Assembly (NCBI GenBank): GCA_964509845.1
Contig: CAZDZG010000002.1
Coordinates: 1 to 44,468 of the forward strand
Reading direction: 5' to 3'
DNA from: Candidatus Hadarchaeota archaeon
Lineage (GTDB): Archaea; Hadarchaeota; Hadarchaeia; Hadarchaeales; WYZ-LMO6
DNA: 44,468 bases
Part shown: in pieces, positions 9,363-40,921 of the stretch
Numbering within the stretch: position 1 is the stretch's first letter
Layout: each line of letters opens with the position of its first letter
Program-made: the position numbers and the translations under genes
The notes under the pieces: model-generated
What the model was told of the DNA's origin: nothing
What the model saw: only the letters and a program-made list of their open reading frames with translations
Databases searched by the model: none

Positions 9363-10982
9363 ATGCCTGAGGACTTCCTGATCGTAAGGGATCTCACCAA
9401 GGAGTTTATCCCCGGCCTACCCGTCGTGAGGAACATCTCCTTCACCCTGCAAGAGGCCAAGACCTTTGGACTGCTGGGAAAAAGCGGGCAGGGGAAGTCC
9501 GTGATCATGCAGGCCATCCGCGGGGTTCCCGAGTACGAGCCCACCACCGGGGAAATCATCTTCAGGGTGGCCTACTGCCCCAGCTGCCACTGGGTGGAGT
9601 ATCCCTCCAAGGCCGGGGAGTCCTGTCCCAAGTGCTCCACCAGGATGGAGTTCAGGGAGGTGAACTACTGGGAAGAGCTGCACAAGCAGAGCCTCATAGG
9701 CAAGTCCATTCACGACAGGATGGCCATCATGCCCCAGCGCGGCTTCTCCCTTTACAGCGAGTTCCCGGCCGTGGAGAACATAAGGAGGGTGCTGCTGAGC
9801 ATAGGGTATCCCGAGGCGGAGGTGGACTTGAGGGCGGTGGAGCTCCTCTCGAGCGTGAGGCTCCAGCACAGGCTCCTGCACCTGGGCAGGGACCTGTCGG
9901 GAGGGGAGAAGCAGAGGGTTATCTTCGCCATGTGCCTTGCTAGGAATCCCCTGCTCTTCCTGGCGGATGAGCCCACCGGGACCCTGGATCCCATAACCAG
10001 CGTGGTGGTGTCGGACGTGATAAAGGAAGCCGTGGAGAGGGACAGGATCTCCCTTCTCCTCACCTCCCACTGGCCGGAGGCCATCAAGATGCTCACGGAG
10101 GAAGCCATCCTCATCGAGAACGGCGAGATGGTCATGAAGGGGAAGTCGGAGGATGTTTACCATGCCTTCATGGAGAAGGTGGAGAAGCTTGAGGTTCAGA
10201 GGTTCAAGGGAACCAACCCCATAGTGAAGTGCGAGGGGGTGAGGAAGTGGTACTACACCTTCGACAGGGGACTGGTAAAGGCGGTGGACGGGGTGGACCT
10301 GGAGATATACGAGGGGGAGGTCTTCGGAATAGTGGGCCTGAGCGGGAGCGGGAAGACCACGCTGGCCCACATGATCATGGGGATCAAGCCCGTGACCCAG
10401 GGGAAGATCTCGGTCAGGATAGGGGAGGAGTGGGTAGACATGGGCATTCCGGGTCCAGACGAGAGGGGGAGGGCCACCGTGCACATGGACATCCTGCATC
10501 AGGAGTACACTCTGCACGCCGGAAGGATCATCCTGGAGAACCTCATAGGGGTGGTGACCGAGCCCCTGCCGGAGGAGGTGAAAACCCAGCGGGCCTACGA
10601 GGTGCTGAGGGCGGTGAACTTCACGGACCCGGAGATAGATTACCTCCTCTACAAGTTCCCGGACCAGCTCAGCGAGGGGGAGAGGCACAGGGTCTGCATA
10701 GCCAGGTCCCTCATGAAGAAGCCCAAGCTGGTTCTCCTGGATGAGCCCACCGGGACGGCGGATCCCATCACCAGGGTGGAGATAGCCAAGAGCATAAGGA
10801 GTGCCAGGGACTCCTTGAACCAGACCTACCTCATCATAAGCCACGATATAGACTTCATGAAGCTCGCCTGCGACAGGGTGGCCTACATGAGACACGGGAA
10901 GATACTTGCCATAGGGGATCCGGACGAGATAATAGAAATGATGGTGAGGACGGAGAGGGAGGCCCTCCAGAAGGGGGGATGA
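9363..10982 (+). CDS. atwA: Methyl-coenzyme M reductase system component A2 (dual ABC ATPase with Zn motif)
   Basis: Two NBDs (GKSGQGKS/LSGGEKQR and GLSGSGKT/LSEGERHR), A2-specific insert CPSCHWVE...CPKC, DEPTGTLDP, TSHWPE, EWVDM..PG..ERGRA, LHQEY. No membrane domain. Confidence 0.92.
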   Translation: MPEDFLIVRDLTKEFIPGLPVVRNISFTLQEAKTFGLLGKSGQGKSVIMQAIRGVPEYEPTTGEIIFRVAYCPSCHWVEYPSKAGESCPKCSTRMEFREVNYWEELHKQSLIGKSIHDRMAIMPQRGFSLYSEFPAVENIRRVLLSIGYPEAEVDLRAVELLSSVRLQHRLLHLGRDLSGGEKQRVIFAMCLARNPLLFLADEPTGTLDPITSVVVSDVIKEAVERDRISLLLTSHWPEAIKMLTEEAILIENGEMVMKGKSEDVYHAFMEKVEKLEVQRFKGTNPIVKCEGVRKWYYTFDRGLVKAVDGVDLEIYEGEVFGIVGLSGSGKTTLAHMIMGIKPVTQGKISVRIGEEWVDMGIPGPDERGRATVHMDILHQEYTLHAGRIILENLIGVVTEPLPEEVKTQRAYEVLRAVNFTDPEIDYLLYKFPDQLSEGERHRVCIARSLMKKPKLVLLDEPTGTADPITRVEIAKSIRSARDSLNQTYLIISHDIDFMKLACDRVAYMRHGKILAIGDPDEIIEMMVRTEREALQKGG

Positions 10983-11824
10983 TGGTGTACGACGAGGCCC
11001 TCACGGAGGAGATAAAGCGGCTGGCGATCTCCCTCGGGGCGGACAAGGTGGGGGTGGGAGAGGCCGACAGGGCGGACAAGACCCCCATGTTCTTCGCCTC
11101 CCCCTACTCCTTCATCAAGGATGCCAAGGCCGTGGTCTCCTTCTGCATCAGGTACCCGGAGGGGGCCCTTTCCTTTTCCAAGGAGGACTTCTTCGTCCTT
11201 CTCTCCTCTTTCGCCTCCGTAAGGGAGGCCCTGCTGAGGAAGCTCAACGAGATAGGCCTCGCCCTGGCCAGGGAGCTGGAGAAAAAGGGATACAGGGCGG
11301 TTCCGCTGGAGGCCAACCTGCCCGTGGATGAGAGAAGGTGGGTGAGCTGCCTGCTCTCGCACAGGTATCTGGCCCAGATCTCTGGTCTGGGGGATATAGG
11401 CGCCAACAACATGCTCCTCACCCCGGAGTGGGGGCCCAGGGTGGAGCTGGGGAGCGTGATCACGAACGCTCCCCTGAGGCCCGACGGGCCCAAGCTGGCG
11501 GGCAAGATATACGAGGAGACCTGCAAGACCTGCTTCAAGTGCGTGGAGGCCTGTCCCACCCAGGCCCTGAGCAGGGAGAAGGTGCCCCCCTACAACTTCG
11601 AGCTCAACCGCTGCCTCTGGGCAACGCAGGGATGGCTGATGCTGTCCAAGATCGAGATCCCGCCCGAGGAGTGGGTGGCCGCCAGGCCCACCGCCATGAT
11701 CCTGTTGCCCAAGTACACCGCCAAGTACCCGTTCATCAAGGTGTACCAGGAGTGGCAGAAGAGGAAGATGGACTTCCCCTGCTGCATAGAGTGCACGCTG
11801 GCCTGTCCGGTGGGGAGGAAGTGA
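10979..11824 (+). CDS. QueG/reductive-dehalogenase-like 4Fe-4S (probable cobalamin-binding) protein
   Basis: GAD.VGV, SHR..A...GLG.IG.N..LLTPEWGPRV.LGSVITN, CxxCxxCxxxCP and C-terminal C..CxxCxxxCP. ATGA-coupled to atwA. Confidence 0.8.
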   Translation: MMVYDEALTEEIKRLAISLGADKVGVGEADRADKTPMFFASPYSFIKDAKAVVSFCIRYPEGALSFSKEDFFVLLSSFASVREALLRKLNEIGLALARELEKKGYRAVPLEANLPVDERRWVSCLLSHRYLAQISGLGDIGANNMLLTPEWGPRVELGSVITNAPLRPDGPKLAGKIYEETCKTCFKCVEACPTQALSREKVPPYNFELNRCLWATQGWLMLSKIEIPPEEWVAARPTAMILLPKYTAKYPFIKVYQEWQKRKMDFPCCIECTLACPVGRK

Positions 11825-11825
11825 G

Positions 11826-12068
11826 GTGAGGCTCCTAGAGTGCACTGCCTGTGGCTGGAAGGGAGGGGAAGGGGAAACGGTGAAGGTCTACGTTTGTCCC
11901 GACTGCGGCACGGGGCACCTGAAGCTTTTCCGCCTTCTCAAACGGAGGGATGGAAGGCTGCAGTGTCCCAAGTGCACCTGGATAGGGACCCCGGAAGAGG
12001 CGGTCAGCGAGCCCGAGTGCCCGAAGTGCGGCAATCCCTACCTGAGGGAAGAACCCGTGGCGCCCTAG
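11826..12068 (+). CDS. 80-aa protein with four CxxC motifs (tandem duplicated Zn-ribbon/rubredoxin-like units)
   Basis: CTAC, CPDC, CPKC, CPKC. Follows the previous stop by 1 nt. Confidence 0.75.
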   Translation: MRLLECTACGWKGGEGETVKVYVCPDCGTGHLKLFRLLKRRDGRLQCPKCTWIGTPEEAVSEPECPKCGNPYLREEPVAP

Positions 12069-12084
12069 GAGGGCCCTTCGGTTA

Positions 12085-13311
12085 TCAGAGGGCCTGGGCC
12101 ACCAGCTCCGTCAGGTCGTAGACCTTGAGCGGCAGCTGGGAGGCTTCCACGGCATCGCTCAGGTTTCTGCGGCAGAAGGGGCAGGTGGATACGATGGCTT
12201 GGGCCCCCGTTTCCTGGGCCTCCTTCAGCCTTTCCGTGGCGGTCCAGATGGCCCACTCGGGATAGGCCGACTTGACCCCTCCCCCCGCCCCGCAGCACCA
12301 GGAGAGCTCCCTGTTGCGGGGCATCTCCGTGAACTTCAGCTGGGGAAGGGCCTTCAGCACGTTTCTCGGGGGCTCGAAGACCTTTTCCTTCTCAAGCTCG
12401 GAAAGGTAGATGGAAACGTGCCTGCCCGAGTGACAGGGATCGTGATAGGTCACGTGCAGGGGCAAGGGGTTGGAGAACCTTATCTTTCCCTCCTGGAGCA
12501 GGGAATTGAGGAGCTCCGCCGTGGTGAGGATCTCGAAGTCGGGCTTTATCCCGAACATGTTGGGATAATCGAGCTTGAGGGTCTTGTAGCACCCGGCGCA
12601 GGAGGTGATGACCCTCTCGGCCCCCGCATCCCTTAGGACGTCCACGTTGTGCCTGGCCATCTCTTCCGCCAGCTTCCTCTGCCCCGTTCGCAGCAGGGGG
12701 GAACCACAGCACCACTCCTCTTCCCCCAGCAGCCCGAACTCCATTCCCAGCTTTTCAAGGATCTTCACGGTGGCCCGGGCTATCGCCTGCTGCCTGTAGG
12801 AGGCGGTGCATCCCACGAAGTAAATGGTCTTGGCTTTCCTCGGGTACCTGCTCCCGTTGGCCCAGGCGGTGCGGTTCTGGGGGGGCTCGTGATAGGGGTT
12901 GTGGTTGAGCCTGATGCTTTCTCCGTATCTGGTGTGGGCGGGCAGGGGCCCCCAGCCTATCTCCACCAGGTAGGCCCGCAGGTCCTCCATGATCTTCACC
13001 GTATCCTCGGCCCTGTATCCCAGGCCCGAGTGATCCTTGCAGTTGACCGAGCAGGAGCCGCAGAGGGTGCAGGCGTAGACCACGTCCAGCAAGCCCTTGG
13101 TGGGCGTGACGATGATGTCTTCGTTCAGTCCCCTGACCAGCTCCATCTTGCCGTAGGAGTAGAAGGCCTCGTGCCCGAAGTAGGTACCGCTGGGACAGTT
13201 GTTCATTACCTTGCCAAGCTTGTGATAGTCCCCCACCGTACAGGCCCTGCAATGAGCGCAAAGATAGCTCAACTTATGCCATTTCTTGATCGTTTCCGTT
13301 TTGGGAGGCAC
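12085..13311 (-). CDS. (Fe-S)-binding protein with two CCG domains (HdrD/GlpC/GlcF-like), copy 1
   Basis: CAHCRAC..CP, CTLCGSCSVNC, YFVGC, WCCGSP, SCAGC, YHDPCH, WCCGAGGG, TCPFC. Start inferred at GTG 13311, about 22 nt past a TATA box. Confidence 0.85.
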   Translation of the reverse strand: MPPKTETIKKWHKLSYLCAHCRACTVGDYHKLGKVMNNCPSGTYFGHEAFYSYGKMELVRGLNEDIIVTPTKGLLDVVYACTLCGSCSVNCKDHSGLGYRAEDTVKIMEDLRAYLVEIGWGPLPAHTRYGESIRLNHNPYHEPPQNRTAWANGSRYPRKAKTIYFVGCTASYRQQAIARATVKILEKLGMEFGLLGEEEWCCGSPLLRTGQRKLAEEMARHNVDVLRDAGAERVITSCAGCYKTLKLDYPNMFGIKPDFEILTTAELLNSLLQEGKIRFSNPLPLHVTYHDPCHSGRHVSIYLSELEKEKVFEPPRNVLKALPQLKFTEMPRNRELSWCCGAGGGVKSAYPEWAIWTATERLKEAQETGAQAIVSTCPFCRRNLSDAVEASQLPLKVYDLTELVAQAL

Positions 13312-13332
13312 AAAGATAGAAGGGGTATCCTC

Positions 13333-13340
13333 TTTATAAG
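13333..13340 (-). promoter_or_regulatory. TATA box for the CCG Fe-S gene
   Basis: CTTATAAA on the minus strand in an AT-rich divergent spacer. Confidence 0.6.
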
Positions 13341-13426
13341 TATTTCGCCTTAGTGCTTCGGTATCCTCACTAAGAGGAAAATTATTTCGGCTGTTTGAGG
13401 ACAAAGAGGAAAAGACCTTCGATAAA

Positions 13427-13434
13427 TTTATAAA
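13427..13434 (+). promoter_or_regulatory. TATA box for the hypothetical/FAD-oxidoreductase/CoA-transferase operon
   Basis: Consensus TTTATAAA, followed by RBS GAGGAGG and ATG 13456. Confidence 0.7.
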
Positions 13435-13455
13435 GGCAGGGAGAAAAAGAGGAGG

Positions 13456-14142
13456 ATGCCCTTAAGCGAGAAGGAACTGCTCGAAGAGATAGAGCGAAGG
13501 GCCATAGACAACAAGGAGAAAGCCGTTCAGGTTCGCGCCGGAAAGCTCTCCGGTGACACCGTGGTTTATATCGCCTTTACCCCCTACCTCCCCTGCCTCA
13601 TAAGGACAGGGGCGGCCGAGGCCAGGACCCTCTTCGGGATGAAGGCGGAAATAGCCTCCCTCGTGCTGAACGAGGACAACGAAGTCATCTTTTCCTACCT
13701 CATAAGGCTCGACGAGGGCTACGTCACCGATTACCAGAGGCTGGATCTGAACCTGACCCACCCCACCACCGGAGTTCCGCTGAGGGAGGCGATAAAGGGG
13801 AAGAGCGTTTACTGGAAGAACCCCACCGGTCCGGCCTTTGCGGCGGAGATCGTGGATCCCATCAGGAAGGACAAAAGCTATAAGCTGTTTACCGGAGTGG
13901 GTTATCTGAAGGACTTCGAGGAGGGCATGGCCATACCGGACGAGAACCTGGATGCCAAGTGCGCCCTCAACTACGACCTTCTGGAAGTGAGGAAGCGGGC
14001 GGCCATCTATCCCATGCCCCCCACCATGAGGGGATTCCTGCTCATGGGAAGGGCGGACTTCACGGACTGGCTCAGGGAGATCCTCGGAGGGGAGGACCTC
14101 CTTCCCCTCATCCCGACCCTCAAGGAGAGGATGGGGAGGTAG
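13456..14142 (+). CDS. Hypothetical protein (228 aa), first gene of the operon
   Basis: Good promoter and RBS, protein-like composition, 1-nt gap to the next gene. No family recognised. Confidence 0.8.
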   Translation: MPLSEKELLEEIERRAIDNKEKAVQVRAGKLSGDTVVYIAFTPYLPCLIRTGAAEARTLFGMKAEIASLVLNEDNEVIFSYLIRLDEGYVTDYQRLDLNLTHPTTGVPLREAIKGKSVYWKNPTGPAFAAEIVDPIRKDKSYKLFTGVGYLKDFEEGMAIPDENLDAKCALNYDLLEVRKRAAIYPMPPTMRGFLLMGRADFTDWLREILGGEDLLPLIPTLKERMGR

Positions 14143-14143
14143 C

Positions 14144-15616
14144 ATGGAAGCGGTTCCCAAGGACAGAATCCTGGCGCTTCTCCAGGACATAGTGGGGCCG
14201 GAGCACGCCACGGCCGATCCTGCCCTGCTCCTTCCCTACTCCAGGGACCAGCACTGGCCCATAGCCGGCATGCACATGCCGGACTACGTGGTGAGGCCCA
14301 AGACGGTGGAGGAAGTCCAGAAGATCCTGCGCCTGGCCAACAGGTACAGGATACCCGTGATTCCCGTGAGCAGCAACACCAACATCCGCGGCCTCACGAT
14401 TCCCCACCACGGGGGAATCATCCTGGACCTGAAGAGGATGGATTACCTGGAAATAGACCCGAAGAACAGGGCGGCCATCATAGGTCCAGGGGTGAGCTGT
14501 GCCAAGCTGGCGGATGAGGCCGAGAAGTACGGGCTGCGGCCGGTCATCCCGGGTGCTCCCTCCACGGTGAACATGCTCTCCAACTGCCTGCTCAGAGGGG
14601 TCTCCAACATAGGTCCCAGGTACGGGCACACGGGGGACCAGGTGCTGGGCATGGAGGTGGTCCTGCCCACGGGGGAGATCCTCTACACGGGGGCCATGGC
14701 CTTCCCCAACGTGGGCCCCTACTTCAGGTACTTCGGTCCCGACTTCGCCGGTCTCTTCCAGGGCCAGCCCGGAATCATGGGGGTGGTGACTAAGATGGCG
14801 GTCAGGCTCTATCCCCTGCCGGAGCGTCAGGAGATGTTCATGTGCGGCTTCAAGCAGAGGCCGGGGGAGCCGGAGGAGGGTCCCCTGCGCAGGGCGATGG
14901 CCTTCATGCACGATCTCATGCTCCACGATCCGCCGGTCATAACCTTCGGGGTCATTCTCCACTGGGTGGCGGCAGCCATCACCATGGTGGAGAAGCGAGA
15001 GGACATAGATGCCTTCAAGGGAACGCTGGGTGACTGGGTGGTGCTGGGCTCCATCGAGGGCTCCAGGGACTTCGTGAAGTACGCCAGGTCGGTGGTGGAG
15101 AAGGAAATCAAGAAGCACTGGGATAACATAGACGAGGGCAGGGAGGTGGTGCTCATGTCCAAGATGCTCAGGGATGAGCTGAAGGCCGCCCGCAGGATCT
15201 TCAGGTGGTTCAGGCTGGGGAACTACTACGCCCTGGCCTGGTGGGGTCCCCTGGACAGGTTCGACAAGTACTACTTCGAGGCCCTCAAGGTCTGGAGGGA
15301 ACTGGGGATCACGGAGGAGCTCTCCATCGTGGGCATCCCGGCCTATCCGTACGTGGGGCAGCTGACCTACTACGAGTTCGACAGCTTCTGGGACGCCACG
15401 GATCCGGAGAACACGGAAAGGATCAAGAAGTTCACGGAGATCATGTACCAGAAGATGATCGACCTGGGGATCTACTGCTGGTTCAGGCCCTACCCCGGGG
15501 TCTACGAGAGCACCATCCCCAGGCTGAAGGGGTGCCTGGGAGAGTTCTGGTACAGGATCAAGAAGCTCCTGGATCCGAACAACATCATGAACCCCGGCAA
15601 GGTTTTCCCCGAGTAA
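14144..15616 (+). CDS. FAD-binding oxidoreductase, VAO/PCMH/GlcD superfamily, copy 1
   Basis: PDYVVRP.TVEEVQ.IL, GGIILDLKRM, GMEVVLPTGEIL.TG, G.MGVVTK, LDPNNIMNPGK. Confidence 0.88.
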   Translation: MEAVPKDRILALLQDIVGPEHATADPALLLPYSRDQHWPIAGMHMPDYVVRPKTVEEVQKILRLANRYRIPVIPVSSNTNIRGLTIPHHGGIILDLKRMDYLEIDPKNRAAIIGPGVSCAKLADEAEKYGLRPVIPGAPSTVNMLSNCLLRGVSNIGPRYGHTGDQVLGMEVVLPTGEILYTGAMAFPNVGPYFRYFGPDFAGLFQGQPGIMGVVTKMAVRLYPLPERQEMFMCGFKQRPGEPEEGPLRRAMAFMHDLMLHDPPVITFGVILHWVAAAITMVEKREDIDAFKGTLGDWVVLGSIEGSRDFVKYARSVVEKEIKKHWDNIDEGREVVLMSKMLRDELKAARRIFRWFRLGNYYALAWWGPLDRFDKYYFEALKVWRELGITEELSIVGIPAYPYVGQLTYYEFDSFWDATDPENTERIKKFTEIMYQKMIDLGIYCWFRPYPGVYESTIPRLKGCLGEFWYRIKKLLDPNNIMNPGKVFPE

Positions 15617-15620
15617 CCCG

Positions 15621-16661
15621 GTGTCCGGATTGAAAGAGCCAGACAAGCTGATGACGGCCAAGGAGGCCATCAAGAAGTTTGTGAGGGATGGTTGCAGCCT
15701 GACCCTGGCCAACTTCGCCACCTCCGAGCCCTTCGCCCTGGTCCACGAGGTGATAAGGCAGAGGAAGAGGAATCTTTACCTCATCAAGTCCTCCGGCTTC
15801 ATGGCCTCGGACCAGCTCCTGGCCGCGGGCTGCCTGAAGAGGATCCTCACCTCCTGGCACCTCCGCATGTCCCCCACCTCCTACTACTCCCCCATCGACA
15901 AGCTGCTCAAGGAGAAGAAGGTGGAGGTGGAGGATTACACCAACTGGACGGTGGCCGCCAGGCTGCTGGCCGGGGCCTGGGGACTCCCCTTCTTCCCCGT
16001 CAGGGATTCCCTCCTCCTGACCGACATAGCGAGGATAAGGAGCTTCGAGGGGGAGAACAAGCTGAAGGTGATAGAGAACCCCTTCAGGCCGGGGGAGAGG
16101 GTGGTGCTGGTTCCGCCCCTGAACCCCGACGTGGCGCTGATCCACGCCCAGCGTGCCGACGTGCACGGCAACGTCCAGCTCTGGGGCCCGCTGGGGGACA
16201 CGGTTTACGCGGCCCTGGCCAGCAAGGTGATCATCGCCAGCGTGGAGGAGATCGTGGAGGAGGAGAACATAAGGAGGTCTCCCTTCCTCACCATCCTTCC
16301 GGACTTCAGGGTGAACGCGCTGGTCCACGAGGAGTGGGGCGCCCATCCCATGGAATGCCTGGGATACTACGACATGGATGAGCCTTTCCTCCTCATCTGG
16401 TATGCCCTCCTGACCAGGAAGATGATGGAGAGCTTCATGGACGAGTGGATCTTCGGGGTGGAGAACCGGAGGGAGTACATAGAGCACTACATAGAGAGGT
16501 TCGGAATAGAGAAGCTCAACAGCCTGAGGGCCAAGAAATACCTGTCGGACACCGTTAACCTGGGTTCCACCTTCGAGGGGGACATGAAGAGGTGGGGGAT
16601 AGAGTGGAGCATCTTCGACCAGCCCATCTCCGAGATGGTGGAGTGGGAGGTGGAGGGTTGA
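15621..16661 (+). CDS. CoA-transferase family I subunit A (glutaconate CoA-transferase GctA-like)
   Basis: KLMT..EAI..FVRDG, AGAWGLPF.P, NPF, PDVALIHAQRAD..GN, GAHP....GYY. Confidence 0.88.
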   Translation: MSGLKEPDKLMTAKEAIKKFVRDGCSLTLANFATSEPFALVHEVIRQRKRNLYLIKSSGFMASDQLLAAGCLKRILTSWHLRMSPTSYYSPIDKLLKEKKVEVEDYTNWTVAARLLAGAWGLPFFPVRDSLLLTDIARIRSFEGENKLKVIENPFRPGERVVLVPPLNPDVALIHAQRADVHGNVQLWGPLGDTVYAALASKVIIASVEEIVEEENIRRSPFLTILPDFRVNALVHEEWGAHPMECLGYYDMDEPFLLIWYALLTRKMMESFMDEWIFGVENRREYIEHYIERFGIEKLNSLRAKKYLSDTVNLGSTFEGDMKRWGIEWSIFDQPISEMVEWEVEG

Positions 16662-17608
16662 AGATAAGGATCACTCCCTTGGAGATGATGGCCTATTCCC
16701 TGGCCAGGGAGCTCAGGGACGGGGAGATAGCCTTCGTGGGACAGGGGCACCCCATCGTGGCGGCCTGTCTGGCCAAGAAGTTCTTCGCCCCCAACCTGAA
16801 GATCCTGATGGAGGGGGGGATCTACGGCTCGGACCCCTACCGCCCCCCCTGGCACATCGCCGATCTGACGGCCAGCAGGGGATGCCGCATGCTCACGGAC
16901 TTCGCAGGGGTCTTCCTTGGCATTCTCTCCAGGGGCTTCGTGGACGTGGGAATCCTGGGGTGCTCCCAGGTGGACAAGTACGGAAACATCAACACCACCG
17001 TGGTGGGGGACTACTTCAATCCCGTCCTGAGGCTTCCCGGGAGCGGGGGAGCCCATGAGGTGGGGGCCTTCGCCAAGAGGCTTCTCATCACCCTGGCGGG
17101 GGGAAGGTTCGTGGAAAAGCTGGATTACGTGACCACTCCGGGCTGGCTGGATGGGGGGGACTCCAGGAGGAGGGCGGGGCTGCCGGGGGGACCTGAGGTC
17201 CTCATCACCAAGAAGGGGATCTTCAGGTTCCACCCCGAGACCAAGGAGATGTACCTGGACGCCAGGTATCCCTGGGTCTCGGTGGAGGAGATAAAGAAGG
17301 ACGTGCCCTGGGATCTCAAGCTGGCGGAGGATGGGGTGAAGGTGGCCCCCCTTCCCACCCCGGAGCAGCTCAGGTTCATCAGGGAGTTCTCCCCCCTGAC
17401 CGCCCTCAGGAGGGACTACTACGTTATGGAGAAGCTCACGGAGAGGCACTGGATGCTGGAGCCCTCCGACGAGCCCCTCCTCACCAGGATAGTAGAGATA
17501 AGGGACGAGGAAAGGGAGGCCATAAAGAGGAGGATTGAGGAGAAGAGGAGGGCCAGGGGCAGCTTCTTCAAGAAGGAGATCGAGAGGTGGAGGGCCTCAG
17601 GCCAGTAG
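16658..17608 (+). CDS. CoA-transferase family I subunit B (GctB-like)
   Basis: LAREL.DG...FVG.G.P, APNL.IL.EGG (catalytic Glu), QVDKYGNINTT, RLPGSGG, FVEKLDY.T.PG. TTGA overlap with subunit A. Confidence 0.88.
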   Translation: MKIRITPLEMMAYSLARELRDGEIAFVGQGHPIVAACLAKKFFAPNLKILMEGGIYGSDPYRPPWHIADLTASRGCRMLTDFAGVFLGILSRGFVDVGILGCSQVDKYGNINTTVVGDYFNPVLRLPGSGGAHEVGAFAKRLLITLAGGRFVEKLDYVTTPGWLDGGDSRRRAGLPGGPEVLITKKGIFRFHPETKEMYLDARYPWVSVEEIKKDVPWDLKLAEDGVKVAPLPTPEQLRFIREFSPLTALRRDYYVMEKLTERHWMLEPSDEPLLTRIVEIRDEEREAIKRRIEEKRRARGSFFKKEIERWRASGQ

Positions 17609-19453
17609 CTCCTCCAGCCCCAGCTCCCTGACCTTCTCCCTGGTGGGTATGCCGTTCCTGTCCCACCCCACCATCTCGTAGTAGGCGTCCAGCATCTCCT
17701 CAAAGGTCTTCCGGTCCAGCACCTGTCCCTGCGAGAAGCCGTCGGGGAGGGGCTCGGTGAAGAACCTGTCGGGCAGGGTATCGTCCTTCCGGCTTATCCC
17801 CTCCCTTACGTTGAAGAGCCTCTGGAGGGTCCAGATTCTCTCCCCCAGCCGGTCCACCCCGGCGGCATCCATCTCCCATCCCGTGACGGCGGAGAGGGAG
17901 GAGGCCATGAGCTCGGGGGTGAAGACTATGCCCGCGAAGAACTTGCAGAGCACGGCCGACTCCACCACCGTGTACCTCCTCTCCAGCGCCACCTCGGCCT
18001 TGACCTTTTCCCGGTCCAGGGCCTGCGGATCCATGGGGGAGTCCACCGGATACATCCAGGTCATGGTCCCTATGTCCAGGTATAGCATGCCCGTGGTGAT
18101 GTGGCATCCCCCCCTGTTGCCCAGGGCGTAGGTGAGGGCCATCCCCTTCATCGCCCTGGGCTCATACCCCGCGTACTCCAGCCCCTTGGTCTGCATGGCG
18201 TACCTCTCCGCCCCCCTTCCCAGCCTCTGGGCCGCCCTCCGGGTTCCCTCGGCCAGCAGGTCCCCTATCCCCCTCCTCTCCCCGATCCTCTTTACCAGCT
18301 CCACCATGGTCTCCCTGTTGCCCCAGCTGAGGTCCAGCCCGTCCGCCTCCTCCTTCCGCAGGATTCCCTTCTCGTAGCACTCCATGGCGAAGGAGATGGC
18401 CCTCCCGCAGCTTATCCCGTCCATCCCGTACTCGTTCACCAGCTGGTGGCAGACCGCCACGGTCTCCAGGTCGGAGTTGCCGCATCCCGCCCCGAAGGTG
18501 TTGACGTGTTCGTACTCCGGGCCCCACACCACCATTCCCCGGTACGGGCCCGATCTCACCACCGAGACCCTTCCGCAGGCTATGGGGCATCCGAAGCATC
18601 CCACCCTCTTCACCAGGAGGGTCCTGGAGAGGGTGGGGCCGGAGAGCTTCTCCCACTCCTCGAACCAGCCGCTCTGGAAGTTCCTGGTGGGGAAGGCGGC
18701 TATGCCGCTGGTGAAGGAGGTCATGGCATCCGTTCCGTAGAGGTGGAGGGAGCGCACGAAGGGCTCGGACTTCCAGATCTCGTACATCCTCCCCACCAGC
18801 TCGGAGACCCTTTCGGGGTCCGCCACCTCCACCCCCCCGTGCCCCCTCACCGCCACCGCCTTCAGCCTTTTCGAGCCCATCACCGCCCCCGCCCCCGCCC
18901 TCCCCGCCGCCCTCCCCTCATCGTTGATGATGGAGGCGAACCTGACCAGCCTCTCCCCCGCCGGGCCTATGGCCGCCACCCTCACCTCCTGGTCCCCCAG
19001 CTCCTCCCTTATCCTGTGCTGGGCCTGGCTGGTGGTGGTCCCCCACAGGTGATCGGCGGGCCTCAGCTCCACGAAGTCGTCGTCTATCCAGAGGTAGACG
19101 GGTCGGGGGGAGACCCCCTCCACGATCAGCACGTCGTAGCCCGCGAACTTCAGCTCCGGCCCCCAGTGGCCGGCCGAGCTGGACCAGCCCAGGATGGAGG
19201 TGAGGGGGGACTTGAAGACCACCACGTACCTGCCGGTGGGTATCCTGGTGCCGGTGAGGGGTCCCGTGCAGAAGAAGAGCTTGTTGGCCTCCCCCAGCGG
19301 GTCCGCCCCCGGCGGCACCTCCCTGTACAGGAGGTAGCTCCCCAGCCCCACCCCTCCCAGGAACTTCCTGGCCAGCTCCGGGGGAAGGCCCTCCTTCCTT
19401 ATCCTCCCGGTGGTGAGGTCGACCCTCAGAATCTTCCCGGCGTACCCCTTCAT
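17597..19453 (-). CDS. aor: Aldehyde:ferredoxin oxidoreductase family (tungstopterin) catalytic subunit
   Basis: GY.GKILRVDL, KSPLT, IGPAGE.LV.FA.I, GR.G.GAVMGSK.LKA, CFGCPIAC, GPEYE, RGGCH, DD.LP.RF, GWD..GIP. Confidence 0.93.
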   Translation of the reverse strand: MKGYAGKILRVDLTTGRIRKEGLPPELARKFLGGVGLGSYLLYREVPPGADPLGEANKLFFCTGPLTGTRIPTGRYVVVFKSPLTSILGWSSSAGHWGPELKFAGYDVLIVEGVSPRPVYLWIDDDFVELRPADHLWGTTTSQAQHRIREELGDQEVRVAAIGPAGERLVRFASIINDEGRAAGRAGAGAVMGSKRLKAVAVRGHGGVEVADPERVSELVGRMYEIWKSEPFVRSLHLYGTDAMTSFTSGIAAFPTRNFQSGWFEEWEKLSGPTLSRTLLVKRVGCFGCPIACGRVSVVRSGPYRGMVVWGPEYEHVNTFGAGCGNSDLETVAVCHQLVNEYGMDGISCGRAISFAMECYEKGILRKEEADGLDLSWGNRETMVELVKRIGERRGIGDLLAEGTRRAAQRLGRGAERYAMQTKGLEYAGYEPRAMKGMALTYALGNRGGCHITTGMLYLDIGTMTWMYPVDSPMDPQALDREKVKAEVALERRYTVVESAVLCKFFAGIVFTPELMASSLSAVTGWEMDAAGVDRLGERIWTLQRLFNVREGISRKDDTLPDRFFTEPLPDGFSQGQVLDRKTFEEMLDAYYEMVGWDRNGIPTREKVRELGLEELLA

Positions 19454-19944
19454 TTTCCGACTCCCAGCGCCTCCCCGGAGAGGGAGAGGGCCTCCAGAAG
19501 CTTTCTCCCGGCGGAGATCCTGTTTCTCAGGCTGGAGACCTCGGAGGTGACCAGCTCCAGGGCGTCGGTTGGACAGGCCTTGACGCACTCCGGATCCCCG
19601 TCGCAGAGATCGCACATCATCACCACGTGGCTCTCCTCATCCAGCACGATGGCCCCGAAGGGGCAGACGTTCAGGCACCAGGTGCAGCCTATGCACTTCT
19701 GCGGGTTCACCCTTATCCTGTGCTTCTCGTCCACCTCCAGCGCCCCCTCGGGACAGGAGCTCACACAGGGGGGCTTTTCGCAGAACTGGCAGCTCAGGGG
19801 CAGGAAGAAATAAGGGGGGACGAAGGTGACCCTGATGAGGGATTTCTTGGGGTTGTATCCCTTCTTCTTGGCCTCGGCACAGGCCAGTTCGCACGTTCTG
19901 CAGCCCGTGCACTTCTCCAGGTCCACCTTCAGGTACCTGCGCAT
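19450..19944 (-). CDS. 4Fe-4S polyferredoxin subunit (AorA/DmsB/CooF-like), partner of AOR
   Basis: Four Cys groups: CTGCRTCELAC, CQFCEKPPCVSSCP, CIGCTWCLNVCP, CDLC..C...CP. ATGA overlap with aor. Confidence 0.9.
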   Translation of the reverse strand: MRRYLKVDLEKCTGCRTCELACAEAKKKGYNPKKSLIRVTFVPPYFFLPLSCQFCEKPPCVSSCPEGALEVDEKHRIRVNPQKCIGCTWCLNVCPFGAIVLDEESHVVMMCDLCDGDPECVKACPTDALELVTSEVSSLRNRISAGRKLLEALSLSGEALGVGK

Positions 19945-19974
19945 TTTGACGTTTTGGCACCGGGGCTAAAAAGG

Positions 19975-21711
19975 CTATCCGTTCGGGCCGGGGCCAAGCT
20001 CGGAGAGGAACTCCACCCCCGGCAGCTCCATGAAGCTCCTCACCACCTCCTCCGGGCTCCCCTCCTTCACCACCTTCCCCTCCCACATCAGCAGGGACCG
20101 GTGGGAGATTTCCCTCACGAAGTCCAGGTGGTGACTCACCACCACCATGGTCAGGCCCAGCTCCCGGTTGAGGAGCTTCAGCGTGTTGGTGATTCCCCGA
20201 AGGGTTAGGGGGTCCAGGTCACCGAAGGGCTCGTCCAGGAAGAGGATGGCGGGGCGGAAGAGGAGCTCTAGGGCTATGGCCAGCCTTATCCTCTCCCCCC
20301 AGGAAAGCTCGAAGGTCTTCCTGTCCACCACCTCCTCCGGGAGCTGGCAGAGCTTCAGCGCGGGCTTTATCACCTTGGAGACGGCCTCCCAGGGGGCCAC
20401 GGGAAAGAGCTCCTTCACCAGCTCCCTGTCCAGACCGAGCTCCTCCAGTCTGGCCTCCGCCTCCCTCTCCGGGTAATCGGAGAGCCTGTAGAGGGCATCC
20501 ACCACCTCCTCCCTGAGCCCCAGCTCCTTTGCCCTTCGCTTGGCGTGGGCCAGGGCCCTCTCCCCCTTTACCCCCAGCCTGGCCATGGCCATCTCCCTGA
20601 CCGAGGCGTGGTAGGGGAGGTCGAGCTCCTGATGGATCCTGCCTATCCTCCTCCTCACCTCCATGGCCCGGTAGCTGAGTCTGGTTATGTTCACCGTCCT
20701 CCCCTCCATCCGGTACAGGACCTCCCCCTCGTCGGGCAGCTCCAGGCCCGAGAGGAGCCTGAGGAGAACGGTCTTGCCCACCCCGGAGGGACCCACGATG
20801 GAGAGGATCTCCCCCTTCCTCACGTCGAAGCTGACCCCCTTCAGCTCGAAGGTCTCCTTGAGGACCTCGGCGTAGTACTTCTTCCTCAGGTTCCTGACCC
20901 TCAGGAGGATTCCCCGCCTGGGAGGGGAGAGGGGAAGGGGGGGCTCCAGTCCGGAGAGGAAGTGGGAGATCACCTCCTTGGGAGGCCCTATCTCCACCAC
21001 CCTTCTCTCCAGCCACATCACCCTGTCGGAGAGGGCCAGGAGGAGGGAGGGCAGATGGGAGGCCACCAGCACCGAGATCCCCAGCTCCTCCCTGAGCCTC
21101 CTTATCTCTTCCACCGCCTGCTTTTTGGTGGCGGGGCAGGTCATGGTGACGGGTTCGTCCAGGAGGAGCAGCAGGGGCCTCTCCCCCAGGGCCAGCTGTC
21201 TGGCCAGCACCAGCCTCTGCTTCTCCCCCCCGCTGAGGGTGAAGGCCGGATGATTCTCCTTGTGAAGGAGGCCCACCGCCCCCAGGATCTCCCTGGCCCT
21301 CTCCCTGAGCCTGGCGAAGTCCTCGGAGTCCTCGGGGGGGAGGGGGAAGGACTCGTCCCCCGTCTCCAGGGCCTGGAGCCTCCTCATCACGTTCTCCAGC
21401 ACCGTCCCCTGCCAGAGCCCGAAGGAGCGCTGCAGGTGGATGGCCGTAAGCCCCCTGAGCCTCAGGTAGTCCTCGGGAGGGGAGGAGGGGGTGAGGACCA
21501 GCCTCCCCAGCCTCACCTCCCCCTTCTCAAAGGGGAGGGAACCCCTGAGGATGCGGATCAGGGTGCTCTTTCCTCCCCCGCTCCTGCCTATGATGCCCAG
21601 GATCTCCCCCTTCCCCAGCTCGAAGGAGACCTCCTCCAGGGCCTCCACCCTCCCCCCTCCCTCCAGCGAGTAGCCCTTGCAGAGACCCCTCACGCTGAGA
21701 AGGGGCTCCAT
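19975..21711 (-). CDS. Component A2-like dual ABC ATPase lacking the Zn motif (second AtwA paralog)
   Basis: GRSGGGKST/LSGGEKQR and GPSGVGKT/LSWGERIR, AIHLQRSFGLW, DEP.TM.CP.TK. No permease gene. Divergent from the mmp operon. Confidence 0.8.
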   Translation of the reverse strand: MEPLLSVRGLCKGYSLEGGGRVEALEEVSFELGKGEILGIIGRSGGGKSTLIRILRGSLPFEKGEVRLGRLVLTPSSPPEDYLRLRGLTAIHLQRSFGLWQGTVLENVMRRLQALETGDESFPLPPEDSEDFARLRERAREILGAVGLLHKENHPAFTLSGGEKQRLVLARQLALGERPLLLLLDEPVTMTCPATKKQAVEEIRRLREELGISVLVASHLPSLLLALSDRVMWLERRVVEIGPPKEVISHFLSGLEPPLPLSPPRRGILLRVRNLRKKYYAEVLKETFELKGVSFDVRKGEILSIVGPSGVGKTVLLRLLSGLELPDEGEVLYRMEGRTVNITRLSYRAMEVRRRIGRIHQELDLPYHASVREMAMARLGVKGERALAHAKRRAKELGLREEVVDALYRLSDYPEREAEARLEELGLDRELVKELFPVAPWEAVSKVIKPALKLCQLPEEVVDRKTFELSWGERIRLAIALELLFRPAILFLDEPFGDLDPLTLRGITNTLKLLNRELGLTMVVVSHHLDFVREISHRSLLMWEGKVVKEGSPEEVVRSFMELPGVEFLSELGPGPNG

Positions 21712-21764: not shown

Positions 21765-23078
21765 GTGGTGAAGGAAGGAGTGGTCATCGTCTCCCCCGAG
21801 GTGTACTCCTACGGGGCCATGCTGATAGGGGGAGTTCTGAGGGAGGAGGGGTACAGGGTGAGGGTGAAGAGGGGGCTGGAGGGGATGGAGGGGGAGAGGT
21901 GGGTGGGGCTAAGTCTGACCTCCCTCTCCCACCTCAGGGAGGCCAGGAGGATCCTGCCCGCCCTCAAGAGCAGGGGGGCGAAGGTGGTGGTGGGGGGATC
22001 CATCACCCAGGTCCCCGAGCTGGTGCTGCGCCTGCTCCCGGAGGTGGATGCGGTGGTGGTGGGAGAAGGTGAGGAAACGGCCCCGGAGGTCTTCGAGGCC
22101 CTACGGGAGGGGAGGGAGCTGGAGGGGATCAGGGGGTTGGCCTTCCGCCGGGGGGAGGAGGAGGTGAAGACCCCACCGAGGGATCCTCCCCGCCTGGAGG
22201 GCAGGCCCCTCCCGGAGATACCGCCCGACGTCTGGAGGCAGGACATAAGGGGGGCCCAGGTCTACCTGGAGACCCACCGGGGATGCAGGGGCGGATGCGG
22301 CTTCTGCCAGGTCCCCTGCTTCTTCGGGAGGAGGGTTAGGTCCAGGCCGGTGGAGGAGATCGTGGAGGAGGTCAAGGCCTTCCTGGCGAAGGGGGTTCGC
22401 AGGTTCTCCCTCTTCGGGGGCACCTCCACCCATTACGGTGGGGACTTCGTGGAGCTGCTGGAAAGGGTGAGCGAGGTGGTGGGGCCTAGGAACCTCTCCG
22501 TTCCCGATCTGAGGGTGGATGAGGTGGAGGAGGAGGTGCTGGAGGCCCTCCGGAAGTACACCATAGGCTTCGTGATCTTCGGGATAGAGTCGGGCAGCGA
22601 AAGGATGTTAAGGAGGATGGGGAAGGGAATTACGGCGGAGGAGATAAGGGAAGGGGTGGAGAAGGCGAAGGAGGCGGGACTGGAGGTGGGAGGGGCCTTC
22701 ATCGTGGGTTATCCCGGGGAGACGGAGGAGGATTATGAGGAGACCAGGAGGATGGTGGAGGAGCTGATGCTGGATGAGTACACCATAAGCCTGGCGGATC
22801 CCCTGCCCGGCACCCCCCTGGCCGAGCAGGTCCTCCTCCTCCCGGAGGAGGAGAATCCCGTCTTCCAGAGGGAGGAAAGGGGAAGGGGGAAGAGGCTTGG
22901 CCTGACGGTGGCGGAAAGCAGGGCCCTTGACCTCATGCTGACCGCCGCCTGCGCCCGCTCCAGGCCCATTCCCCTCACCGACTCCTTCTACAGGAGGCTG
23001 GTGGAGGAGGTGAGGAGGCAGGGGGAGGAGATAAGGGCCAACACCAGGGACCTCAAGAGGTGCCTGGCGGGAAGATGA
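21765..23078 (+). CDS. Cobalamin-dependent radical SAM enzyme, probable MCR glutamine C-methyltransferase (QCMT/MgmA-like)
   Basis: N-terminal B12 domain (SPEVYSYGAMLIGGVL; VVVGEGE), IRGA.VY.ETHRGCRGGCGFCQVP (CxxxCxxC), PDLRVD, FGIESGS. Directly upstream of mmp3. Confidence 0.72.
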   Translation: MVKEGVVIVSPEVYSYGAMLIGGVLREEGYRVRVKRGLEGMEGERWVGLSLTSLSHLREARRILPALKSRGAKVVVGGSITQVPELVLRLLPEVDAVVVGEGEETAPEVFEALREGRELEGIRGLAFRRGEEEVKTPPRDPPRLEGRPLPEIPPDVWRQDIRGAQVYLETHRGCRGGCGFCQVPCFFGRRVRSRPVEEIVEEVKAFLAKGVRRFSLFGGTSTHYGGDFVELLERVSEVVGPRNLSVPDLRVDEVEEEVLEALRKYTIGFVIFGIESGSERMLRRMGKGITAEEIREGVEKAKEAGLEVGGAFIVGYPGETEEDYEETRRMVEELMLDEYTISLADPLPGTPLAEQVLLLPEEENPVFQREERGRGKRLGLTVAESRALDLMLTAACARSRPIPLTDSFYRRLVEEVRRQGEEIRANTRDLKRCLAGR

Positions 23079-27324: not shown

Positions 27325-27325
27325 C

Positions 27326-40908: not shown

Positions 40909-40921
40909 GCGGGGGAGGACC

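Follow-up and report, generated by a model that had tools for sequence, protein, structure and literature searches.

The 12.3-kb interval at positions 9363-21711 (both strands) of the window, i.e., of the whole stretch of 44,468 nucleotides that was analysed, is best read as an assembly, peculiar to one family, of four transcription units beside the ACR maturation operon of what is called a small Hadarchaeales alkane oxidiser, and not as one pathway operon. Judged from sequence comparisons, a flavoprotein and its CCG-domain Fe-S partner (the FAD/CCG pair) are a good candidate for a step specific to ACR. As no other part of the block follows the alkane-oxidising archaea from phylum to phylum, the pair is also a testable candidate for the step after alkane activation. 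The earlier note had proposed that the block encodes a complete route from alkyl-CoM to acyl-CoA. All genes named for it are present at the coordinates given, as checked with Pfam and NCBIfam, and the thiolase and ETF genes that had been reported downstream are indeed present. A single block carrying the whole route as a conserved unit is not supported, because the CoA-transferase and the AOR lack an ACR pattern and the pieces are scattered in another ACR-bearing Hadarchaeales genome (G048); the full route via the block is unproven. The features are:

9363-10982, plus strand: atwA1, component A2, a double ABC ATPase with zinc motif (TIGR03269, 650 bits versus a cut-off of 517)
10979-11824, plus strand: RDH/QueG-like small Fe-S protein, overlapping the atwA1 stop by 4 nt (sub-threshold matches to TIGR02486, 57.7 versus 160, and TIGR00276, 51.9 versus 200)
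11826-12068, plus strand: Zn-ribbon protein of 80 aa (zinc-ribbon Pfam matches sub-threshold only)
12085-13404, minus strand: CCG1, HdrD/TfrB-like, 4Fe-4S dicluster and two CCG domains (PF02754, 134.7 bits in 2 stretches; PF13183); start codon uncertain
13405-13455, no strand: divergent intergenic region between CCG1 and unk228, TATA-like box TTTATAAA, GGAGG ahead of the unk228 start; putative promoter
13456-14142, plus strand: unk228, 228 aa, stop 1 nt ahead of the FAD1 start
14144-15616, plus strand: FAD1, FAD_binding_4 flavoprotein of the VAO/PCMH superfamily (PF01565, 98.2 bits)
15621-16661, plus strand: CoA-transferase subunit A, GctA-like (PF01144, 86.8 bits; PDB 1poi_A, E 3.6e-46)
16658-17608, plus strand: CoA-transferase subunit B, GctB-like (PF01144, 79.3 bits; PDB 1poi_B, E 3.1e-48); TTG start overlapping the subunit A stop
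17597-19453, minus strand: AorB, tungsten-type aldehyde:ferredoxin oxidoreductase (AFOR_C 463 bits, AFOR_N 269 bits)
19450-19944, minus strand: AorA-like electron-transfer subunit, 4x[4Fe-4S] (Fer4 families; PDB 9mqx_E, E 7.8e-31, and 8c0z_C)
19975-21711, minus strand: A2 homolog, second double-ABC ATPase, lacking the zinc motif (TIGR03269, 270.6 bits versus the cut-off of 517)
21765-30084, plus strand: MCR/ACR maturation/activation operon (QCMT, Mmp3, Mmp6, Mmp5, Mmp15, Mmp17, McrC, McrD, Mmp8)
33201-34631, minus strand: FAD2, second flavoprotein of the FAD1 clade (Pfam, NCBIfam, tree)
34628-35776, minus strand: CCG2, 4-nt overlap with FAD2, the pair spanning 33201-35776 (Pfam, NCBIfam)
37882-44236, no strand: beta-oxidation context by Pfam, with thiolase (37882-39075), DUF35, an HdrC/B-like pair, an ADP-forming acyl-CoA synthetase, and ETF alpha and beta (42363-44236)

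Gene spacing and strands divide the interval into at least four transcription units, and therefore it is not one operon. The first comprises atwA1 and the genes for the RDH-like and Zn-ribbon proteins (plus strand), the second CCG1 (minus strand), the third unk228, FAD1 and both CoA-transferase subunits (plus strand; the first three genes separated by 1 nt and 4 nt, the two subunit genes overlapping by 4 nt), and the fourth is headed by the A2 homolog, followed by AorA and AorB (minus strand; a gap of 30 nt, then a 4-nt overlap). The block abuts the maturation operon, with the A2 homolog divergent from QCMT at a distance of 53 nt. The operon was identified by NCBIfam (TIGR04014, 527 bits; TIGR03268, 03272, 03271, 03286, 03291 and 03275 exceed their cut-offs) and, for MCR_C and MCR_D, by Pfam.

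The presence of an ACR, which the earlier note had asked to be checked, was borne out by the genome: contig C51 carries acrB and acrG, and two N-terminal acrA fragments of 62 residues are found at the ends of contigs C15 and C51. The comparison comprised 61 genomes, namely, the window's own, five others of its family and 55 from outside the family. Five of the 61 have mcrA matches (four of five family members and one of the 55 others); the remaining 54 outside genomes have none, the exception being G048. These relatives are not independent samples, because the family is one clade and G048 a single extra point. The 12.3-kb block is collinear in four of four genomes of the same genus, at 80-89% nucleotide identity, and within the genus collinearity covers 35 kb, with ArgRS at one end and the HdrB-like gene at the other. 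The order is preserved in the sister genus, though in pieces, so that the expected synteny holds in the family and not in G048, where the pieces lie on separate contigs and the CoA-transferase, the RDH-like protein and unk228 have no match in the genome. In ACR-lacking relatives no orthologs of the flavoprotein, unk228, the CCG partner or the A2 homolog were found, whereas the CoA-transferase, the AOR and the RDH-like protein show no link to ACR. Of the findings that the earlier note had listed as contrary to its proposal (no acr/mcr genes in a near-complete genome, orthologs common in ACR-lacking relatives, activity on 2-hydroxyacids or aromatics but not on alkyl-CoM), none was made in full.

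The claim of two atwA genes holds for one of them. The protein encoded by atwA1 is MCR/ACR component A2, with CxxC motifs at residues 72 and 88 and two Walker A motifs. In contrast, the translation of 19975-21711 contains no CxxC motif and, as its score is also below the cut-off, the second ATPase is a homolog and not a demonstrated A2. It is present in seven of the 61 genomes, i.e., the window's, the five others of the family, and G048, where it lies about 3 kb from QCMT. It could be argued that its unit with AorA and AorB uses electrons of very low potential from aldehyde oxidation together with ATP hydrolysis for the reductive activation of ACR (Ni2+ to Ni1+), and not for bulk carbon flux. 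The tight spacing of the three genes next to the divergent QCMT-Mmp-McrC operon, the preservation of this arrangement in all four same-genus genomes and the sister genus, and the restricted distribution of the homolog, again near QCMT in G048, are in favour of this idea, which could hold side by side with the other readings. F430 requires a reductant at -600 to -700 mV, according to the relevant section of a preprint (bioRxiv 10.64898/2026.03.18.712670), in which a zinc-motif-less A2 homolog serves merely as an outgroup. However, the closest match to AorB in G048 is no ortholog (46% identity), and the G048 contig stops inside the A2-homolog gene, so that the genes downstream are out of view. 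We regard this function as very unlikely.

The evidence for the preferred reading comes mainly from the flavoproteins. In a database search with FAD1, 8000 candidates sharing most words were scored, and the best 120 of 2261 matches were listed. Among these 120, the best named matches beyond close relatives are from Methanoliparum, Methanolliviera, Syntrophoarchaeum, five Helarchaeota, one Promethearchaeota and one Halobacteriota, and the matches within the clade reach at least 281 bits, while the next full-length match outside it has 213 bits. The related rows form one clade with a support of 99 (FastTree, 122 rows; IQ-TREE quick, 85 rows), which contains FAD1 and FAD2, together with the orthologs of FAD2 from genomes G005 and G048, and none of 14 paralogs from eight ACR-lacking Hadarchaeales genomes (IQ-TREE quick, 85 rows). 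Thus, with the link to ACR read from the lineage names of the 10 named among 39 database rows, the clade was shown to occur in putatively ACR-bearing lineages of three phyla. The best 120 of 2261 matches include no named protein from Ethanoperedens, Argoarchaeum, Alkanophaga, Polytropus or ACR-bearing Bathyarchaeia. The sister group of FAD1 is formed by Methanoliparia rows (support 99), which echoes the placement of Hadarchaeota ACRs beside those of Bathyarchaeia and Methanoliparia in the pertinent part of a published study (PMC11297162). D-LDH and p-cresol methylhydroxylase are equally good matches to the profile of the clade (E 2.2e-50 and 6.4e-50, respectively). Among the 39 sequences R448 is invariant, no His column past residue 240 exceeds 36% and no Glu is invariant. 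The clade thus differs from typical D-2-hydroxyacid dehydrogenases by lacking their conserved His/His/Glu metal site. The sharing of the clade by independent ACR lineages and the absence of this site favour the idea of the earlier note for this step, the part of the proposed route that is supported across lineages, in contrast to the AOR and CoA-transferase steps. However, as all these lineages also have beta-oxidation, the link could reflect that pathway instead.

CCG partners adjoin both clade flavoproteins in the window, and the CCG2/FAD2 pair is also adjacent in G048 (contig C62). CCG1 orthologs (79-85% identity) are confined to the family. Full-length CCG matches in ACR-lacking genomes have at most 36% identity, versus 42-51% for the partners in ACR-bearing genomes. 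The pairs could instead be of the "HdrD-GlcD" type, interconverting CoM-SH plus CoB-SH and CoM-S-S-CoB with a small organic substrate or acceptor, and thus recycle ACR cofactors outside the carbon path, a possible but rather doubtful function. The best NCBIfam match of CCG1 and CCG2 is indeed the thiol:fumarate reductase subunit TfrB (208 and 196 bits), each protein contains two CCG motifs (residues 232 and 370 in CCG1), and the PDB matches are HdrB chains, yet the TfrB scores are below the cut-off of 385 bits. The relevant passages on hdrD-glcD pairs of Verstraetearchaeota, and on seven pairs in an ACR-bearing Archaeoglobi genome, propose CoM-SH/CoB-SH redox chemistry, not a conversion of alkyl-CoM (PMC6783470; bioRxiv 10.1101/390617). 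However, the named GlcD-like protein P0131 of Verstraetearchaeota falls outside the FAD clade in both trees, and the missing His/His/Glu site argues against a D-lactate/glycolate dehydrogenase of known kind. Methanogens and methanotrophs also need heterodisulfide turnover, yet the clade contains no named methanogen or ANME protein (10 of 39 rows named; best 120 of 2261 matches).

VAO-superfamily enzymes such as cytokinin dehydrogenase abstract a hydride by the flavin next to a heteroatom. By analogy, the FAD/CCG pair may be an ACR-specific dehydrogenase of the alkyl-S-CoM thioether: the flavin would abstract a hydride from C1, water addition would lead via a thiohemiacetal to a fatty aldehyde and HS-CoM, and the electrons would leave via the [4Fe-4S] and CCG clusters. 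In the window's family, the neighbouring AorAB might oxidise the aldehyde to the acid, which could be activated by the GctAB-like transferase or, equally well, by one of the genome's four FadD-type ligases, so that the transferase would not be needed. For this mechanism, from alkyl-S-CoM through the aldehyde to the activated acid, there is about one chance in three.

The enzymes of the later steps could also serve ordinary fermentation of organic acids, amino acids and aldehydes, together with the flavoprotein, and have come to lie near ACR activation genes by chance in one family. The closest solved relative of the CoA-transferase is glutaconate CoA-transferase, and a Glu of subunit B aligns with that in the VESG motif of 1poi_B. 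Its relatives occur in Jordarchaeum, Lokiarchaeota, Bathyarchaeota, Methanomethylicia, Desulfosporosinus and others with smoothly falling scores, which suggests a broad GctAB-like family without an ACR pattern. AorB closely matches 9mqx_D (E 5.8e-150) and 1aor (E 1.7e-145). Of the 55 genomes that do not belong to the window's family (54 lack an mcrA match), 49 contain members of the AOR family, with up to nine matches per genome, and only a family-specific ortholog holds the position in the block; AOR as such shows no link to ACR. An AOR step has already been proposed in print, and Aor genes were merely moderately expressed in Alkanophaga cultures, according to the relevant parts of these reports (PMC10811742, PMC10322722; PMC10322722 for expression). 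The mainly bacterial look-alikes of the RDH-like protein and the loss of the arrangement in G048 also fit an incidental neighbourhood. However, among the 61 genomes orthologs of the block genes are limited to the ACR-bearing family (the A2 homolog also in G048), the 35 kb are collinear within the genus, and the FAD clade tracks ACR lineages across phyla, and thus an incidental neighbourhood seems unlikely.

For the missing step, an unrelated multi-copy family of 490-540 aa, encoded directly after acrG and beside genes for SCP2, AOR, FadD and acyl-CoA dehydrogenase, is just as good a candidate. If it converted alkyl-CoM, the flavoprotein of the block would act further downstream in the pathway. 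Five copies are present in the window's genome (on C51 after acrG, C52, C31, C26 and C7). The family is present in the six genomes of the window's family, with 5-8 matches each, and in ACR-bearing G048, i.e., in seven of 61, and in none of the other 54. On C26 and in G001 it adjoins an SCP2 protein and a divergent AOR near acrA, on C31 it is preceded by an AMP-binding ligase, and on C7 it is flanked by two acyl-CoA dehydrogenases. However, it has no match in Pfam, NCBIfam or PDB, its AF2 model is unusable (pLDDT 37), and its distribution is known from the 61 genomes, within Hadarchaeales, alone. Its role as the alkyl-CoM-converting enzyme appears improbable.

The RDH-like protein shows no link to ACR either, as judged from its distribution: orthologs are confined to the family, 12 ACR-lacking genomes contain homologs of 31-38% identity, and the atlas look-alikes are broad. 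Its PDB matches are restricted to residues 126-213. For unk228, there is no match in Pfam or NCBIfam, and a fold comparison of its AF2 model (pLDDT 83) with the PDB gave no match at E<=0.001. It is present in six of the 61 genomes, all of the window's family, and a database of 5.8 billion sequences contains thirteen such proteins. The translation of the Zn-ribbon protein contains four CxxC-type pairs.

In alkane oxidation based on alkyl-CoM reductase (ACR), a single step lacks an assignment, namely how archaea convert alkyl-CoM to acyl-CoA; papers from as recently as late 2024 describe it as unknown. An earlier note had read the 12.3-kb block between two atwA genes (9363-21711) as a candidate for a complete route for this step. 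The present analysis partly supports a narrower version, in which the 12-kb proposal is reduced to a two-gene candidate, a flavoprotein (FAD1) and a CCG Fe-S protein (CCG1), with a paralogous pair (FAD2/CCG2) in the same window. The gene map was derived from Pfam and NCBIfam scans of the window, which is contig C2 (positions 1-44468) and has a G+C content of 59-68%; the genome (G000) comprises 1.09 Mb in 87 contigs and is estimated to be 92% complete.

Genes of the block and its surroundings, with window coordinates
7189-9024: ArgRS
9363-10982, plus strand: atwA1, component A2
10979-11824, plus strand: small Fe-S protein with a QueG/RDH-like segment (RDH-like protein)
11826-12068, plus strand: Zn-ribbon protein
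12085-13404, minus strand: CCG1, HdrD/TfrB-like
13456-14142, plus strand: unk228, a protein of 228 aa
14144-15616, plus strand: FAD1, FAD_binding_4 flavoprotein
15621-16661, plus strand: CoA-transferase subunit A
16658-17608, plus strand: CoA-transferase subunit B
17597-19453, minus strand: AOR (AorB)
19450-19944, minus strand: poly-ferredoxin subunit (AorA)
19975-21711, minus strand: second double-ABC ATPase (A2 homolog)
21765-30084: MCR/ACR maturation operon (QCMT, Mmp3, Mmp6, Mmp5, Mmp15, Mmp17, McrC, McrD, Mmp8)
33201-35776, minus strand: second CCG/FAD pair (CCG2/FAD2)
Downstream in the window: ADP-forming acyl-CoA synthetase, thiolase and DUF35, another acyl-CoA synthetase, ETF

The gene content was as claimed, apart from the second atwA, which is only a homolog of component A2, and strands and spacing divide the block into four units. 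These are atwA1 with the RDH-like and Zn-ribbon proteins (plus strand), CCG1 alone (minus strand), unk228, FAD1 and both CoA-transferase subunits (plus strand, with gaps of 1 and 4 nt followed by a 4-nt overlap), and the A2 homolog with AorA and AorB (minus strand). The unk228 unit is preceded by 51 nt that contain a TATA-like box, and the block directly adjoins the MCR/ACR maturation operon. In that operon, no convincing gene was recognized between McrD and Mmp8 (28636-29238), the 252-aa ORF at 28625-29383, rich in Arg, Gly and Pro, looks spurious, and no window ORF matched a marker-7 (Mmp7) model in the scans run. No tRNA genes were found in the window, and a search for RNA sequencing runs containing the stretch 12085-21711 yielded none. 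Two HdrC-like/HdrB-like pairs (36184-37846 and 39518-40908) flank the thiolase and DUF35 genes near ETF, and look like ETF-linked Fe-S oxidoreductases of beta-oxidation.

The proposal presupposed an ACR in the genome, and ACR genes were indeed found. Contig C51 carries acrB and acrG, and a tblastn search with the AcrA of a relative matched residues 1-62 of that protein at two contig ends (C15:2-187 and C51:2-187). As these N-terminal fragments lie at contig ends and acrA is present in close relatives, the gene has been broken by the assembly and is not absent, which also explains why the McrA Pfam models had no match in the G000 assembly. The same gene is cut at contig ends in related genomes (G001:C4, G002:C20, G005:C38 and C13). 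Among the 61 genomes of the order Hadarchaeales, McrA was detected in four of the five other members of the window's family (f1) and in one of the 55 others, G048; members of f1 usually have two acrA copies. G001, a near-closed relative, has acrA followed by a 206-aa ORF, acrB, acrG and a 541-aa ORF, and the second acrA lies elsewhere in the genome. The ORF of about 200 aa between acrA and acrB is conserved and has no Pfam match, and a paralog with 56% identity follows the second acrA (loci G000 C51:3980-4597 and C76:1696-2253, G001 L034:902-1519). The maturation operon is headed by the MCR glutamine C-methyltransferase QCMT (21765-23078; TIGR04014, 527 bits). Since the only MCR-type genes found are acr-like, its presence implies formation of 2-methylglutamine on an ACR, too.

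The block is collinear, with 80-89% nucleotide identity, in all four genomes of the same genus, and in G001 collinearity extends over everything from ArgRS up to the last HdrB-like gene; the sister genus has kept the order of the block across three contigs. Scans of contigs retrieved four loci in genomes and two in metagenomes, all from close relatives. Outside f1 the picture is different. Counts within Hadarchaeales come from related genomes and are not independent samples. The protein unk228 occurs in only six of the 61 genomes, all of f1, and orthologs of FAD1 (at least 85% identity), CCG1 (79-85%), CoA-transferase subunit A, the AOR and the RDH-like protein are likewise confined to f1. Other genomes contain paralogs of FAD1 with at most 48% identity, and the best full-length identity to CCG1 in ACR-lacking genomes is 36%. 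Homologs of CoA-transferase subunit A (32-44%) and of the RDH-like protein (31-38%) are present in 10 and 12 ACR-lacking genomes, respectively, and the AOR family is found in 55 of the 61 genomes, with up to nine matches in ACR-lacking ones. The other ACR-bearing genome, G048 (79% complete), has atwA1 beside acrA, the A2 homolog near QCMT (about 3 kb), and CCG2-FAD2 by themselves on a contig; unk228, the CoA-transferase and the RDH-like protein had no match in this assembly. As the arrangement is kept in f1 and differs in G048, the block as a unit is specific to one family, and the idea that the whole route forms one conserved cluster was not borne out in G048, the other ACR-bearing lineage compared. 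The best-supported view is that units related to ACR and to lipids are gathered around the activation operon in a family-specific way. Relatives of unk228 and FAD1 at 63-71% identity share longest-contig sizes (21685, 20316 and 21230), which suggests that these two genes stay together in a more distant lineage.

Several enzymes of the proposed route could be classified. The CoA-transferase belongs to family I, glutaconate CoA-transferase type (PF01144, 86.8 and 79.3 bits), and matches GctAB (1poi) with E-values of 3.6e-46 and 3.1e-48. The Glu of 'MEGG' in subunit B, which we take to be the catalytic residue, lies opposite the Glu of 'VESG' in 1poi_B. The subunits are longer (346 and 316 aa) than the GctAB chains (317 and 260 aa). 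The genome also encodes five acyl-CoA dehydrogenases and four AMP-forming ligases, and because of the latter the transferase would not be required. The AOR (AFOR_N 269 bits, AFOR_C 463 bits) and its adjacent poly-ferredoxin subunit have the features of an aldehyde:ferredoxin oxidoreductase with predicted tungsten; they match both chains of two-subunit tungsten AORs (9mqx D/E, 8c0z AorB/AorA) and also 1aor. Unlike in the 9mqx and 8c0z systems, there is no adjacent gene for an FAD/NAD subunit, and an ATPase gene heads the unit. An AOR for this step is already a published suggestion, made for Ethanoperedens and a cultured Hadarchaeon and doubted for Alkanophaga (PMC10811742, PMC10322722). The relatives of the AOR and of the CoA-transferase, the latter taxonomically broad, show no ACR pattern, and the earlier link of these two steps to ACR was not borne out. 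Nor could the RDH-like protein be upheld as an epoxyqueuosine reductase or reductive dehalogenase, because its scores (57.7 versus 160 and 51.9 versus 200 bits) are below the cut-offs and only about 80-90 residues match. The AF2 model of unk228 (pLDDT 83) had no PDB match at E<=0.001, and the Atlas yielded no usable match; sterol-carrier-like and other best fold matches had TM values of 0.26-0.38 and were not used.

Of the two ATPases that had been taken for component A2, atwA1 is a true one (TIGR03269, 650 bits versus a cut-off of 517), with both nucleotide-binding domains, two Walker A motifs, two signature motifs and CxxC pairs at residues 72 and 88. The second also has both domains, but scores only 270.6 bits against the same cut-off, has only three Cys and no CxxC, and is 28-31% identical to atwA1. 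It fits the component A2 homolog without zinc-binding motif described in bioRxiv 10.64898/2026.03.18.712670 and differs from it in heading a unit with AorA and AorB. It was matched in seven of the 61 genomes, and outside f1 only in G048. It is possible that the AorAB unit together with the A2 homolog feeds ACR activation, for which the shared unit and this distribution would speak.

A different picture was obtained for the flavoprotein. FAD1 was searched against 5.8 billion proteins, and the best 120 of 2261 matches were examined: close relatives came first, followed by full-length matches with 36-49% identity. The named ones among the matches listed are from Ca. Methanoliparum thermophilum, Ca. 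Methanolliviera, Ca. Syntrophoarchaeum, five Helarchaeota, one Promethearchaeota and one Halobacteriota. Within these best 120 the lowest named member of this group scored 281 bits and the next full-length match outside it 213 bits; below the group, the list continued with proteins from Bathyarchaeaceae, Deltaproteobacteria and others that carry a glycolate oxidase annotation. The group was recovered as a clade with support 99 in both trees (FastTree with 122 sequences, IQ-TREE with 85), and 10 of its 39 database sequences are named. FAD2 of the window and its orthologs in G005 and G048 fall inside the clade, while none of the 14 paralogs from eight ACR-lacking Hadarchaeales genomes does, and a Verstraetearchaeota GlcD-like representative is outside in both trees. 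The smaller tree omitted a truncated 234-aa ORF of G048, the FAD matches of G016, G051 and G054 (the genus of G013; 37-40% identity to FAD1) and several further matches of G017, G023 and G025 (all at most 37%), and kept a sample of 22 generic database matches. CCG paralogs with 42-51% identity adjoin the clade flavoproteins in ACR-bearing genomes. The sister group of FAD1 consists of Methanoliparia sequences, which parallels the published placement of ACRs: those of Hadarchaeota near Bathyarchaeia and Methanoliparia (PMC11297162), and those of Helarchaeota with Methanoliparia (PMC9118554). In the best-supported picture, the FAD/CCG pair is the only element of the block that is tied to multi-carbon ACR lineages across phyla.

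FAD1 is a member of the VAO/PCMH superfamily (PF01565, 98.2 bits versus a cut-off of 26.4), but with 106 versus 568 bits for the GlcD equivalog TIGR00387 it does not classify as a D-2-hydroxyacid dehydrogenase. As a single sequence it matched PDB chains over the FAD domain only, and the C-terminal half had no PDB chain match. A profile of the clade matched about equally well, over the full length, mouse D-lactate dehydrogenase LDHD (8jdc, E 2.2e-50) and p-cresol methylhydroxylase PCMH (1dii/1wve, 6.4e-50). The metal site of LDHD presumably consists of two His and one Glu, and these align with the consensus residues f, e and R, of which f and e are not conserved and R is an invariant Arg, in stretches where the confidence of the alignment is moderate to low. 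In keeping with such a site, a second deposited PDB chain has Ala in place of one of the two His. Independently of this alignment, in the 39 clade sequences no column after residue 240 has an invariant Glu, and His reaches at most 36%. The clade, unlike LDHD, therefore lacks a conserved His/His/Glu, the label 'GlcD' is not earned, and a plain lactate or glycolate dehydrogenase appears a weaker reading of FAD1. R448, an invariant Arg of the clade, aligns with a Tyr-Arg pair near the C-terminus of PCMH, to which we ascribe an active-site role. FAD1 shares FAD_binding_4 with LDHD and PCMH, but it is paired with an HdrD-like protein and not, as PCMH, with a cytochrome c subunit. A comparison of MAFFT columns between the clade and generic GlcD-like matches did not reveal a clear triad in the one or the other, and it was dropped in favour of the alignment of the clade profile to PDB chains and the conservation within the clade.

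CCG1 resembles HdrD, TfrB and GlcF in having an N-terminal 4Fe-4S dicluster domain (PF13183, 29 bits) and two CCG domains (PF02754 in two stretches, 134.7 bits; motifs at residues 232 and 370), which places it by domains in the HdrD/TfrB type. The best family, TfrB, scored 208 bits against a cut-off of 385, every equivalog cut-off was missed, and the PDB matches are HdrB, so that no family was assigned. Unlike HdrD and TfrB, it has neither HdrE nor TfrA as neighbor, but a VAO-type flavoprotein. The same two-gene pairing, in several copies per genome, is known as 'hdrD-glcD' from uncultured MCR/ACR archaea, and PMC6783470 and bioRxiv 10.1101/390617 treat these pairs as heterodisulfide/thiol modules. 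The main rival explanation is that the FAD/CCG pair handles thiol/heterodisulfide redox reactions. This was the only reading met within the literature searched, where no paper tied a GlcD-like flavoprotein to the conversion of alkyl-CoM; GlcD, HdrD, lactate and Aor do not occur in the main text of PMC11297162, the paper on the hexadecane culture. What sets the pair in the window apart is the clade of its flavoprotein, in which every named member is from a multi-carbon alkane lineage.

Judged from sequence, the most likely role of the FAD/CCG pair would be the oxidation of the alkyl-CoM thioether to aldehyde and HS-CoM, with about one chance in three. The VAO-superfamily flavoprotein would oxidize C1 of the alkyl thioether, the resulting thiohemiacetal would decay to fatty aldehyde and HS-CoM, and the electrons would leave via the HdrD-like subunit; the subsequent steps could be taken by AorAB and by a ligase or the transferase. 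The more far-reaching version, that FAD1/CCG1, perhaps with unk228, is an alkyl-CoM dehydrogenase and that its clade travelled with the ACR genes between Hadarchaeota, Methanoliparia, Syntrophoarchaeum and Helarchaeota, is somewhat less probable and has to be called doubtful. The candidate combines a phyletic signature across three phyla, which the AOR and CoA-transferase parts of the route lack, with an active site unlike that of known 2-hydroxyacid dehydrogenases, and it lends itself to expression and to assays on synthetic alkyl-CoM.

A competing candidate is a family of 490-540 aa encoded directly after acrG, of which the genome has five copies (loci L002 and L057-L060).

Copies of the acrG-linked family in G000
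C51:280-1791
C52:190-1695
C31:11226-12329
C26:13007-14476
C7:16408-17874

It is possible that this family performs the missing chemistry. It is present in seven of the 61 genomes, namely f1, with 5-8 matches per genome, and the ACR-bearing G048; the remaining 54 genomes gave no match. Nothing similar to it was found in Pfam, NCBIfam or the PDB, and the AF2 model of the family (pLDDT 37) is unusable. Two further AOR-family genes, each with an SCP2 (sterol-carrier) protein nearby, are encoded on C26 (L057:4445-8579) and C21 (L061:3939-7660) of G000, and on C1 of G001 (L033:2403-6469); one such AOR/SCP2 pair lies beside a copy of the acrG-linked family, a few genes from the second acrA. On C7 of G000, about 2 kb from another copy, a paralog of the RDH/QueG-like protein with 33% identity (L058:7910-9031) is located between two acyl-CoA dehydrogenase genes.
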